DNA from: Octopus vulgaris
Lineage: Eukaryota
Length of the DNA: 64,000 bases
NCBI GenBank assembly: GCA_951406725.2
Contig: OX597825.1
Span: 75,578,001-75,642,000, forward strand
Direction: 5' to 3'
Each line of letters begins with the position of its first letter. The first letter of the stretch is position 1. Shown in pieces: positions 18,690-59,716 of this stretch. Under the pieces are notes generated by a model that did not search any database, was not told the origin of the DNA, and saw only the letters and a program-made list of their open reading frames with translations. The position numbers and the translations under genes were made by a program.

Positions 18690-19407
18690 GTGAGAACTTT
18701 TACCTTCTTGAATTCCATTAATATTTTAAAAAATTTTAATTGTTTATTTATTTATTTATTTATTGTAATTGTTGCTATTATTAATGACTCCCTAGGTTTT
18801 CTCAGCCTTGACTGAGAAAACCTGGGGATCAAAGACTTTCCAGAATGGACATCAAGTTGTTTTCTCAGAAGCATATACCTAAGGTCTTAATTCAGTTTTT
18901 TCTTTTTTCCTAAGACAATATGGTGAGTCTTAAAGGAGATTTGGTACCTATTTCTAGTAAGTCTAATAATCAGATGCAGGCTTACCTTATTCCCTGGAGT
19001 TATTTTGCATGTATCGGTGTGTATTTGTTTTTGTGTGTGTGTGCATATATATATAGGAAGGTGTACTATCATCACCATCATCAGCAGTGTCTTTACCACC
19101 ACCACCATCATCATCATCATCATTTCCTCTTTGGATTCTGAGATATTTTGGATGGGTTTATCATAGTATAAGACAACTATTATTCACAGTTAGTGTTCTC
19201 GTTACATATGTGTGTGTGTATGTATATGTATTTATATATATATATATATATATATATATTTATATGTGTGTGTGTATGTATATATGTATATGTATTTATA
19301 TATATACATACACATATATATATATATATATATATATATATATATATATATATGTACATATATATACATATATATGTACGTATATATATATATATATATA
19401 TATATAG

Positions 19408-20812
19408 ATAAGAAAGTTGGTTTGTGAAAGCACGTGGGTGAATATATAGAAAATAGTAAAGAGTGAAAAAACTACAGAAGGCATAAATGTTAAAAAATAT
19501 TTGCGTCAATATGTCTGAAGAATATTAGAAAATTTTTTTTTTTTTTTTTTTCTCTTATAATGACATAATTTAAAAGAAGGACCAGTTTTGCATGTAGCTT
19601 TTCAAATTTCTTGCGACGTTATGTTTATGTTGAATAGAGTTTTCGTTATGTTTATGTTCAGGAGAGTTCTAAATAAGGGAAGGTAGTGAGTGATTTCTTC
19701 CGGTGTAAGGGAGATAATTGCTTAAAAATTTTTTCCTTTCCCTTGTGAATTTCTCTGTATCAGTATGTTCGGATTGTTGAGTCTGGGCTTGTACTTTTCA
19801 ATGAAGAATGTTTCTTTGTTTAGTCTAATTTGTGTTGATGATCCGAAAGCACATTGGTAAAATGGAAAGATTAAAAATTGTGGTAGTAGTTGTTTTGCAC
19901 ATTTCTCAATGTGCTCACTAAAAGGTATCATTCTATATTCTGGGAATGCAATCTGTTGTCGATGCAGTGTGCATCTACGTCTGAGTGATAGTCCCGTGGA
20001 ACCCACGTAGTCTTGGTGGCAGCCCGAGCATTTTATGACATAAATTATGTTTTCAGAGGCACAAGTAAAGTTAGATTTGATCTTGAATTTCTGTCCCTCT
20101 TTAAAGAGGAATTCTGGTCCTTCTAGCAGGTTAGGACATGTTGCACAGTTCGATCTACCACATTTTTTTACTTTTGCATCCGTAATTTCAGAAGACAATA
20201 TTGCCTTTGTGAGAATCTTTTTGAGTGATTTAGGCTGTTTGTAGCTTTTAATGATTTGGTGTATGTTTAGAATTTCCTTTAATTTGGGGTCTTTATGAAG
20301 TATTGGTAAATTCTGGGTGATGATGGTGAAGGCTTCTTTGTTTCTGGGGTTGTATGTAGATATGTAAGGTAGTATTTTCGGGGAAGGTGTGTTGTTGTGT
20401 TGAACTTTTCTTAAAGTTTCTATGTTGATTGCTGTTGCACGTCTGATCCCATCCTCTATGAGTTGAGCTGGGTAATGTCTGTCAATTAAGGTGTTTTTGA
20501 GTTCTTGCAGTCTAAAGTTCCTGGTATTCTGTTCTGACACTATTGTGCATATCCTTCTTGCAAGGTTGAAGAGGATGTTTGTTTTAGTGTGTCTTGGGTG
20601 GCATGAATTAAAAAGAAGGTATTGTTTGGCGTCTGTGGCTTTGTAAAAGATGTCTGTTTCTATTTTAAGGCTAATTTTTTTAATTAGTATATCCAAGAAT
20701 GGGAGCTCCTTTTGGTTGTATTCCATTGTGAACTGTATATTGGGTTAATGCTGTTCAATAGGTTTTTAAATTTTAGGAGTTTATCTGTGTTTTCATTCCA
20801 GAGAATAAAACA
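19408..20812 (-). mobile_element. Penelope-like element (Neptune-type), 5'-truncated just after the RT DD motif
   Basis: ORF 19722-20726: LPFLDI, SCHP, CGRSNCATC linker, FTCASENIIYVIKCSGC..YVGST GIY-YIG; TA tracts on both sides. Confidence 0.9.
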
Positions 20813-21605
20813 ATATATATATATACATATATATGTACAAATATATATATATATATTTATATATATATATATATATATATATATATATATATATATATAT
20901 ATATATATATATATATATATATATATATATATATATATATATATATATATATATATATATATATATATATATATATATATATATATATATATATATATAT
21001 ATATATATATATATATATATATATATATATATATATATATATATATATTAATATATATATATATATATATATATATATATATATATATATATATATATAT
21101 ATATATATATATATATATATATATATATATATATATATATATATATATATATATATATATATATATATATATATATATATATATATATATATATATATAT
21201 ATATATATATATATATATATATATATATATATATATATTTATATATATATATATATATATATATATATATATATATATATATATATATATATATATATAT
21301 ATATATATATATATATATATATATATATATATATATATATATATATATATATATATATATATATATATATATATATATATATATATATATATATATATAT
21401 ATATATATATATATATATATATATATATATATATATATATATATATATATATATATATATATATATATATATATATATATATATATATATATATATATAT
21501 ATATATATATATATATATATATATATATATATATATATATATATATATATATATATATATATATATATATATATATATATATATATATATATTTATATAT
21601 ATATA
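20813..21605. repeat. (TA)n tract
   Basis: Direct reading. Confidence 0.97.
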
Positions 21606-22726
21606 TCCTTAAATCCTTAAATCCTTAAAAATGTTTTAGCCCGAAGGCCGCGGCCATGCTGGGGCACCACCGCTGAATGAGCTACACTAGTTTGTGAATC
21701 CACCTCTGATACGTGGCACTTGATCAACAAGGGAGTTCGATGCTGCTGCCCGCATCCGTGTCTCCTGTCGTGAGGTAGGTTCATCTGGGACTCCCAACAA
21801 GAAGAGATCCAGTTTAGTTTTAAAGAAACCCACATCCACACCATGTAAGTCTCTCAGGCATTTAGGGAAGATGTTAAAGAGCTGTGGTCCTCTGAAACCC
21901 AAGCTGTTGCAGTATCTGGACCTGTATTTTGATGGTGATGTTGGAATCCTTGGCACCACGCAGCGGCGCCCGTTCTGCGGTTGGAGTAACTTTGAATGCC
22001 AAAGTTTGGGACAAGACCCTCCAGGATTTTCCAGATGTATATCACTGCATATCTCTCCCGCCTCCGCTCCAGGGAGAAGAGGTTTAATACCTTCAGTCTT
22101 TCCCAGTAGCTGACATTTTGCATTGAGACGATTTTCTTTGTGTAGCTTCTCTGAGTTGCTTCGAGTTCTGCTGTTTGTTTTATATTGTGTGATGACCAAA
22201 GTTGGGAGCAGTAGTCCAAGCGGCTGAGGACAAATGTTTTCCATAGGACCATCAGTGTCTCCTTCTCTCTTGTTCTGAAAGTTCGGAGAATCCATCCAGC
22301 TAGCCGTCTGCTTTTTATCACCAGATTAGCAATATGCATTTGGAAAGATGCATCATTGCTCATGTCAATGCCCAGGTAACGCACTGATTTTGACTCAGGG
22401 ATTGCAATTCTTCCTGGGCCAGTGTATCCAGTCTTCACGTCATTTACCTTTGTGTGCCAGTAGCGCAGGGCCTGGAACTTACCTGCATTAAACTGCATGT
22501 TGTTGTCCTCAGCCCACCTGTATATTGTGTCCAGCTCATGTTGCAGATGCGCAATATTTTCAGGGTTTTGTATTGCGTGGGAGACTTTTGTGTGATCTGC
22601 ATAGCTAGCAATGGTGGTCATCGTAGCAACTGAAGGCATGTCTGAAAGGGCCACTATGAACATCAGTGGCCCCAAGACAGTGCCCTGTGGGACACCGCTT
22701 GTTATTTGCGTTTCCCTGGAGGTGGG
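21606..22726 (-). mobile_element. LINE family A copy A1 (5'-truncated, (TTTAAGGA)n tail)
   Basis: [14 protein letters not shown] (DD mutated), frameshift ~21970; nearly identical to 3' part of A2. Confidence 0.95.
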
Positions 22727-58820: not shown

Positions 58821-58837
58821 ATATATATATATATATG

Positions 58838-59133
58838 TAGATGTACAAGTGAGAGTCTCCCTACTTACCTAAAGCTCTATTTTTCTATTTATATTTTTTT
58901 ATTTTTGTATTCTTTTATTTATTCTTTTATCTACTTTACCACTGATTCCTTTGACCACTCCCCTAATAATGACAGTTTTGCGCCATGCCTACCCCCAAAA
59001 AAGTCCCCCACCACCACCCATTTAAACCTGCCTAAATGTATAAATGCCAAAACAACTCTTGTCTACTAGCTTCCTGATGATTTCTTTTGAATGAAACAGC
59101 TCTAGTCCTGTAGAAGCTCCTTCTATAAAATAA
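58838..59133 (+). mobile_element. Short non-coding hammerhead-bearing insert between TA tracts
   Basis: ~295 bp, no ORF, hammerhead near 3' end followed by ataaaataaa and (TA)n. Confidence 0.65.
59068..59118 (+). ncRNA. Type I hammerhead ribozyme
   Basis: AGCTTC-CTGATGA-T TTC TTTT GAA T-GAAA-CAG CTCTAGTC CTG-TA-GAAGCT. Confidence 0.85.
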
Positions 59134-59716
59134 ATATATATATATATATATATATATATATATATATATATATATATATATATATATATATATATATATA
59201 TATATATATATATATATATATATATATATATATATATATATATATATATATATATATATATATATATATATATATATTATATATATATTATATATATTTA
59301 TATATTTATATATATTTATATATATATATTTATATATTTATATATATTTTATATATATATTTATATATTTATATATTTTTATATATTTATATATATATAT
59401 ATATATATATATATATATATATATATATATATATATATATATATATATATATATATATATATATATATATATATATATATATATATATATATATATATAT
59501 ATATATATATATATATATATATATATATATATATATATATATATATATATATATATATATATATATATATATATATATATATATATATATATATATATAT
59601 ATATATATATATATATATATATATATATATATATATATATATATATATATATATACATATATATATATACATACGTATATATATATATATACATATATAT
59701 ATATACATACATATAT
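59134..59716. repeat. (TA)n tract
   Basis: Direct reading. Confidence 0.97.

Follow-up and report, generated by a model that had tools for sequence, protein, structure and literature searches.

Targeting of (TA)n has been published for Penelope-like elements (PLEs) of the Hydra and Naiad groups, and the Neptune linker has been proposed as its cause, according to the available part of Craig et al. 2021 (PMC8557442). For non-LTR (non-long terminal repeat) retrotransposons, the accessible portion of PMC3812793 lists AC, TC, TTC and TAA as targeted microsatellites and gives TA only for Micron. Waldo/Mino are R1 elements in the available text of PMC3124438. In plants, the DNA transposons MuTAnT, Micron and TAFT converge on (TA)n, which is argued to be a safe haven in the part of PMC4486113 at hand. 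Here, we describe an array of retroelements in a 64,000-nucleotide stretch of Octopus vulgaris DNA (C12:75578001-75642000, within a 2.8-Gb genome; hereafter, the window). Long interspersed nuclear elements (LINEs) of three families, called A, B and C, PLEs and hammerhead units are separated there by TA-rich DNA. With a probability of about 0.6, we read this array as a pile-up of retroelements that each prefer (TA)n genome-wide, grown by repeated insertion into one long tract and then reshaped by exchange between neighbouring copies.

Composition of the array

The array covers positions 19219-59716 of the window, i.e. 40,498 bases, of which 28,502 belong to elements and 11,996 do not. This non-element remainder is 98.8% A+T, with TA/AT steps making up 96%. 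With TA runs collapsed and the pieces compared, the order from left to right is P1, A1, Bx, C1, A2, B1, N1, C2, B2, P2, B3, X, B4, B5, Y, H1, N2, H2. The LINE and PLE pieces are as follows (RT, reverse transcriptase).

19219 to 59716, no strand: whole array, elements totalling 28.5 kb and TA-rich DNA totalling 12.0 kb; the main tracts measure ~110-1870 bp
19407 to 20812, minus strand: P1, 5'-truncated Neptune-type PLE with RT thumb, CX4CxxC linker and GIY-YIG domain with CCHH; 58% amino acid identity to P2
21606 to 22726, minus strand: A1, 5'-truncated family-A LINE with (TTAAGGA)n tail, 99.4% identical to A2
22902 to 23934, minus strand: Bx, internal piece from the endonuclease region of a B subfamily, 94.9% identical to B3/B5
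24657 to 26166, plus strand: C1, 5'-truncated family-C LINE with (TATCAAAG)n tail; RVT_1
28334 to 31014, minus strand: A2, family-A LINE; RVT_1; identical over 1080 bp to many genomic copies
32508 to 34684, minus strand: B1, 5'-truncated family-B LINE with (AATC)n tail; has the rare local allele
34849 to 35568, plus strand: N1, 3' end of a Hydra-type PLE, GIY-YIG domain without CCHH; hammerhead-like motif with CCGA core
36693 to 37164, minus strand: C2, short 3' piece of family C, 99.1% identical to C1
38102 to 40352, plus strand: B2, family-B LINE in the opposite orientation to the other B copies; has the rare local allele and a further one found otherwise only in B3
41189 to 46105, plus strand: P2, Neptune-type PLE; frame with RT and C-terminal GIY-YIG at 42300-43964; inverted pseudo-LTRs
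46884 to 50078, minus strand: B3, near-full family-B LINE; 5' end joined to X, not to TA
50468 to 51487, minus strand: B4, 1020-bp 3' piece of family B
51970 to 55027, minus strand: B5, 5'-truncated family-B LINE; open 990-residue APE and RT frame at 52058-55027; PF14529, PF03372, PF00078
57344 to 58819, plus strand: N2, 3' end of a second Hydra-type PLE; minimal hammerhead motif

The initial annotation had counted ten LINE pieces of three families, four PLE pieces and two hammerhead units, in both orientations and without unique spacer DNA. We recovered the same inventory: two A copies, five B copies plus the internal piece Bx, two C copies, four PLE pieces (P1, P2, N1, N2) and two hammerhead units (H1, H2). 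Both orientations are represented, and no unique DNA lies between elements across 19219-59716. Self-BLAST found no young copies in the left 19 kb of the window, again as annotated. The statement that TA abuts every insert at both ends is true of most of them, but the 5' end of B3 joins a 133-bp fragment, X. Bx has lost its 3' end, yet TA flanks it on both sides. Two repeat fragments had been overlooked, X (50079-50211) and Y (55948-56030); Y is a repeat piece rather than microsatellite. The spacer between H1 and N2 (57017-57343) is a mixed CA/TA/TG tract. The right edge of the array is fuzzy, with an older repeat and a PLE coming next. The left flank holds an older CR1-like LINE, D, with ~30% amino acid identity to B, which served as a control.

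An APE endonuclease and an RT are encoded in one frame in B5, and RT hits were also obtained for A and C. Protein identity to B is 74% for A and ~37-53% for C, and the closest named relative of the B protein is from Argonauta hians (57%). In a tree of the RT region (32 rows), A groups with B and C forms a sister branch, all in one clade (100/98) that excludes the older family D. We take A, B and C to be CR1-like, a label based on motifs, the tree having no named CR1 reference. The 5' truncation points are many and varied. The tails are (TTAAGGA)n in A, (AATC)n in B and (TATCAAAG)n in C; with tails this different, pairing of the tail is not enough to account for a shared target. In a neighbouring B-subfamily copy (L245:619-1320), the frame is open from a lysine-rich N-terminus via a Cys/His motif, presumably CCCH-like, into the APE domain. 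Judging from its sequence, this N-terminal region is a candidate targeting module of the B subfamily. A frameshift common to B1 and B3 concerns one base in a T run; it may be a sequencing error and was not used.

TA flanks and tract lengths across the genome

A copy was scored as TA-flanked if a TA run of at least 8 bases began no more than 20 bases from its 3' end, among top-ranked copies at least 93% identical. For the background, 120 kb was sampled as 20 stretches at arbitrarily chosen round coordinates. Non-TA flanks at most genomic copies, which the initial annotation had named as the outcome contrary to its proposal, are not what we found: 141 of 151 young copies of all families are TA-flanked, vs 5.7% in the background. 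The LINEs contribute 58/63 (A 27/30, B 19/20, C 12/13), and the PLEs 26/29 for P1, 27/27 for P2, 14/15 for N1 and 16/17 for N2, these PLE loci not all being independent because some single insertions contribute both ends. Older copies, counted apart, are TA-flanked in 4/11 (C), 3/3 (N1) and 1/1 (N2) cases. Seven loci of the window, 12 N2 loci running into their own extension and eight loci short of the 3' end were left out. A B set obtained with a query that carried 10 bases of TA (27/28) was not pooled, given its ranking bias; the 19/20 comes from a tail-free query.

Exact tails were also counted with whole-genome patterns, which have no ranking bias, on forward-strand matches only, as reverse ones are multiply counted. 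ATATATAT occurs no more than 28 bases after the 3' tail in 514/901 cases for A and 1126/1969 for B (57% each), a value that is likely a floor because the 28-base span includes the tail itself. The corresponding count for control LINE D is 217/3254 (6.7%). TA flanking as a general LINE trait was rejected on this count and on inspection of D copies by eye (0-1 of 16, L264 being borderline). The proposed convergence on (TA)n of elements with APE and GIY-YIG domains, two endonucleases that are unrelated, holds genome-wide relative to D. Within the 40.5-kb array, exact A and B tails number 7 vs 0.085 expected (P 6e-12), and their excess after scaling for the local TA load has a P of 4e-6.

TA is present at the 5' side of 30 of the 38 LINE copies in which that side is visible; five of the remaining eight run, by eye, into rearranged element sequence, and three are not TA. 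The median 5' and 3' tracts measure 108 and 111.5 bp, with a rho of 0.62 and no asymmetry (P 0.98). Both sides often share variant units that are not anchored at the junctions, and the repeat masks any target-site duplication. This sharing, together with the TA at most 5' sides, shows that the tract was there before the insert: the LINE lands within an existing TA tract and does not write one as its tail. Addition of TA by the RT as part of the tail was accordingly rejected, the tracts being symmetric and their variant units common to both sides.

The two classes of elements differ in the tracts that they occupy. The 3' tract has a median of 114 bp for LINEs vs 35 bp for PLEs (about 3-fold), and tracts of at least 300 bp are found at 21/63 LINE and 2/88 PLE copies (P 1e-7), six B tracts being cut off at ~540 bp in this comparison. 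The PLE flanks are near a length-proportional draw from the background (one-sided median 23 bp). Short LINE flanks are also common (17/18, 35/31 and 40/37 bp).

A proportion of 21/63 where such a draw predicts 1.3% (one-sided) is what might be expected if cruciform extrusion or breakage of long TA tracts let any retroelement be pasted in, the endonucleases having no specificity for TA sequence. The sharing of one target by many unrelated families agrees with such break capture, as do the TA fragility and cruciform cleavage described for human cells in the available part of PMC13645644. Nevertheless, control LINE D stays near the background in the exact counts, the PLE flanks and many LINE flanks are short, and all 3' ends except that of Bx have intact tails, as in endonuclease-primed insertion. 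We consider break capture unlikely.

The initial annotation had explained the long tracts by regrowth, in which an insertion halves a short tract, slippage re-expands it and the target is renewed. Array tracts of 0.5-1.9 kb vs a background median of 20 bp are in line with this idea, the higher-order variant units beside LINE ends show slippage, and the right end, assembled twice, has one tract of unequal length in the two versions. However, the symmetry and correlation of the 5' and 3' tracts fit insertion into tracts that were already long. Flank length does not rise with age (A vs B, P 0.41), and the flanks of 95%-identical P1 copies are no longer than those of near-identical P2 copies. PLE flanks stay short, and tracts of at least 300 bp exist without a recognised neighbouring element (L241, L101, L199). 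A preference for long tracts appears to explain the data more simply than regrowth, because element-free long tracts occur and flank length is independent of age; regrowth after each split appears quite unlikely.

Small clusters and element-TA-element junctions are also found elsewhere in the genome. Another family of the array was recognised beyond the 3' tract at 13 loci of the unbiased sets, and two B copies on C9 have several kb of TA between them. In the first 72 Mb of C1, B tails lie <10 kb apart in 9/99 gaps vs 1.4 expected. In the same region, 4/49 A tails lie <10 kb from a B tail vs 1.3 expected, compared with 1/100 D tails vs 2.4 expected. A dense run of B at C1:70.3-72.0 Mb contains 20 of the first 100 B copies listed on C1.

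A number of observations weigh against the pile-up of TA-preferring elements. Approximately 43% of the A and B tails are without ATATATAT within 28 bp (a span that includes the tail), and the young copies L030, L055, L059 and L206 are in only few TA steps, so the TA preference is not absolute. The background comes from no more than 120 kb. D is also the older family, and part of its contrast with A and B may come from decayed flanks. The hairpin region of the B endonuclease resembles that of a non-targeting, D-like relative. L242, an outside relative on a metagenome contig, nested in the A/B/C clade and the one locus that a metagenome scan returned, ends in satellite, not TA; this 42%-identical relative (L242:4260-5340) has a short tail followed by a ~140-bp satellite. 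D tails cluster too, lying <10 kb apart in 9/99 gaps vs 2.0 expected in the first 72 Mb of C1; because D clusters with itself, clustering alone is not specific to TA targeters. The co-clustering of A with B is weak (P 0.045). Lastly, the endonucleases might not read TA, such DNA being perhaps simply accessible or already broken.

Kinship of the B copies and integrity of the locus

The four long B copies (B1, B2, B3 and B5) share one base that is present in 0/34 other copies compared that cover the site. A 25-mer with this base accounts for 6 of 1525 genomic matches with any base at the site: four in the array, one on the unplaced contig C74 and one on C7. The chance of such a concentration in the array is 7e-11. 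A second allele is common to B2 and B3 only in the whole genome, and the counterpart of B2 on C74 is without it. Altogether, allele sharing is mosaic (B1-2-3-5, B2-3-5, B2-3 and B4-5), and each B copy is truncated at a point of its own, with private substitutions. The B2/B3/B5 allele has 71 genomic matches and is therefore not local, and neither is the B4/B5 allele tested, with 160. B4 and B5 share five 3' variants that are absent from the C74 copy; since one of these has the 160 genomic matches, B4 may represent an insertion of a sub-lineage that converted B5. An unlinked B copy on C24 (L207) is 5'-truncated at the same base as B4 (window position 51487), also against TA.

By the rare allele, B1, B2, B3 and B5 are related locally, likely by gene conversion or duplication, so the array is not simply the product of ten independent visits. 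A1 differs from A2 at 6 positions, and likewise from its nearest genomic copies. A1/A2 and C1/C2 are not each other's closest copies, and by their sequences they look like independent insertions.

The kinship of the B copies might also come from local retrotransposition, a resident full-length B copy having seeded B1, B2 and B5 into neighbouring tracts. The rare allele is indeed shared despite differing 5' truncations, differing lengths of the (intact) tails and both orientations, and the C74 counterpart of B3 extends another ~470 bp in the 5' direction before a TA tract begins. However, the mosaic sharing fits patchy conversion, and a source should leave dispersed copies, while the rare allele has only one other chromosomal match. 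To our knowledge, local hopping of LINEs is not established, which counts against this explanation as well. We find it quite unlikely.

C74 provides a second version of part of the array. Its offsets to the window are 35105 at B2, 35098 at B3 and 35531-35553 at B5 and H1; it keeps the B2-B3 spacing within 7 bp and the B5-H1 spacing within ~20 bp. The middle part of H1 finds its only other top-score match on C74. X and B4 are absent from the matching place, which has no room for B4. Based on match positions and 3.4 kb of sequence, we infer that C74 is colinear with B2-B3-B5-H1, and it is likely the other haplotype.

These data bear on whether the array is an assembly artefact, made of repeats mis-joined via TA tracts or of alleles mixed in polishing. 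Several features of the locus invite this suspicion. A 100-N gap and a ~28-kb duplicate starting inside H1 are present, C74 has indel errors, the 27-mer of the B2 5' junction is unique to the window and thus absent from C74, and no read spans the array. In short contigs from public runs, the left flank is covered in four runs and the array edge in none. On the other side, C74 repeats the two spacings given above, truncation points and private substitutions distinguish each copy from the others, the ~28-kb duplicate again shows the H1-N2-H2 junctions, and the genome-wide TA flanking is independent of this locus. An artefact is thus very improbable. The duplicate consists of ~28 kb, beginning with window positions 56785-64000, that are repeated after the 100-N gap (L245:3267-3366; C12:75665267) at mostly 98-100% identity with a 1.4-kb indel. 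It is probably an unpurged haplotype overlap, and it repeats H1-N2-H2 only, the rest of the array being outside it.

Under the pile-up reading that we favour, the endonuclease of each family would nick TA DNA for target-primed reverse transcription. Every insertion would leave TA on both sides; because TA is kept there, targets would persist and their number would not fall. A long tract would keep drawing LINEs. Long TA tracts, for which PMC13645644 describes fragility and cruciform cleavage in human cells, would moreover be break-prone, and their repair would produce deletions, changes in tract length and gene conversion or duplication among B copies. Truncated pieces found in the array are Bx and B3/X. 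A bolder version is that the LINEs read the shape of long (TA)n (hairpin or cruciform) beyond its sequence and that a resident full-length copy reseeds neighbouring tracts, which we regard as a long shot. If true, TA arrays would be self-seeding LINE nurseries shared with Penelope, and would account for part of the octopus transposable element (TE) hotspots.

The array had been placed in a host intron. We found no clear host exon in Pfam searches of 84 of the 151 frames of at least 70 residues from the left 19 kb of the window plus 60 kb of adjacent DNA, from which short exons would escape; the other frames are mostly those of elements. The hits are all of transposon type, namely mariner, RT, Pif1 and one weak PHD/C1 hit <100 bp from an RT frame, and they do not bear out the intron. 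The left flank includes mariner transposase remnants and an RT fragment at 3988-4754 and 8603-9277. Contigs from two public runs skip 522 bases at 14201-14724, a possible insertion polymorphism.

Penelope-like elements, hammerhead units and known systems

P1 and P2 have a CX2-5CxxC linker ahead of a C-terminal GIY-YIG domain with CCHH, and their relatives have PF01541. The closest named relative of the P2 protein is from Octopus bimaculoides (84%). The pseudo-LTRs of P2 are inverted, 737 bp long and 99.7% identical, and one of them carries a 37-43-bp extension. A 1.4-kb TG/TA-rich low-complexity stretch lies ahead of the right repeat of P2 (43968-45400); it belongs to the element, because the part beside the repeat is common to other copies. 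The genomic copies L152, L153, L174 and L184 of N1/N2 show CxCX5C, CxxC and CxH, and no CCHH. A motif-and-helix scan detected type-I hammerhead cores with paired stems I and III in H1, H2, N1 and N2, the core of N1 being a variant, and none in the scanned parts of P1 and P2, for which Rfam gave none either. Rfam searches returned no hammerhead at the gathering score; hits by E-value were microsatellite matches to miRNA models.

The other features of the array are the following.

50079 to 50211, no strand: X, terminal 133 bp of a further repeat family, with 154 candidates genome-wide
55948 to 56030, no strand: Y, piece of a further repeat family that is abundant and often spaced at ~835 bp
56061 to 57016, minus strand: H1, retrozyme-like, 564-bp period, 1.7 copies, type-I hammerhead motif in each repeat
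58837 to 59129, plus strand: H2, 293-bp non-coding unit with type-I hammerhead motif

The left end of H1 adjoins TA in 14/14 genomic copies, and the end of X does so in 10/10. H2 is likely a PLE pseudo-LTR. Members of the X family (L271-L280) are young, 98-99% identical, start with GGTTCC and are always beside TA, often in long tracts; the family is possibly a DNA transposon. A 24-mer from Y has 4013 genomic matches at no more than one mismatch, and the Y family is possibly another retrozyme or a PLE terminal unit.

The initial annotation had viewed the array as convergence on (TA)n as a safe harbour. The convergence stands, but the idea is partly old, since PLE targeting and the plant safe haven are published. 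The PLE half of the array is known biology. In contrast, LINE targeting of TA, the bias for long tracts and the local exchange among copies appear new. We found no TA-targeting CR1-like APE LINE in the accessible literature, a search that did not extend to Repbase and supplements and in which '(TA)n' is unsearchable as a term. No TA-targeting LINE is mentioned in the available parts of PMC9115989, PMC10294476, PMC3124438, PMC4120745 and bioRxiv 10.64898/2026.07.22.740005, and the A/B clade is not listed as target-biased in searchable papers.

If the targeting is as we propose, the microsatellites targeted by APE LINEs would come to include (TA)n, and the clade concerned is young and abundant, with at least 5,800 exact A and B tails. 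The non-targeting D in the same genome offers a natural comparison for what sets APE target choice, and TA targeting is a testable cause for the octopus TE hotspots. Two cautions arise: copies inside TA arrays are not independent insertions, and octopus TA microsatellite markers are often located at element ends. These matters belong to the genome ecology of selfish DNA, and no host function is indicated.

Compared with known systems, N1 and N2 share with the Hydra-clade PLEs the CxCX5C linker, absence of CCHH, CxxC, CxH, a hammerhead motif and (TA)n targets. There is no essential difference in the 3' part compared, and octopods are not among the hosts named in the available text (PMC8557442). 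P1 and P2 resemble the Neptune clade in their C-terminal GIY-YIG domain, CX2-5CxxC linker and CCHH, and P2 also in its inverted pseudo-LTRs and one-sided extension, an assignment that is motif-based, Neptune and Nematis not being separated by a tree. They differ in that the scan, in the parts covered, found no hammerhead. Like non-LTR retrozymes, H1 is non-coding and forms a partial tandem in which each unit has a type-I hammerhead motif; the portion of bioRxiv 10.64898/2026.07.22.740005 available does not mention TA targeting.

In the convergence of unrelated families on (TA)n, the octopus array parallels MuTAnT, Micron and TAFT. Nevertheless, the latter are DNA transposons in short tracts (mean 11.7 repeats), and the accessible part of PMC4486113 describes no multi-family 40-kb array. 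The TE hotspots of Octopus vulgaris are similarly dense windows of young CR1 and Penelope elements, suggested to be niches, for which the main text of PMC13282606, as available, gives no target sequence or mechanism. Like Waldo/Mino (AC), Kibi (TC), Koshi (TTC) and Dong (TAA), families A, B and C are found far above chance in microsatellite, but their target is (TA)n, which the portion of PMC3812793 at hand gives for no LINE. Unlike those elements, A, B and C have copy numbers in the thousands and leaky targeting. Kibi and Koshi belong to Tx1 and Dong to R4, while A, B and C look CR1-like instead.

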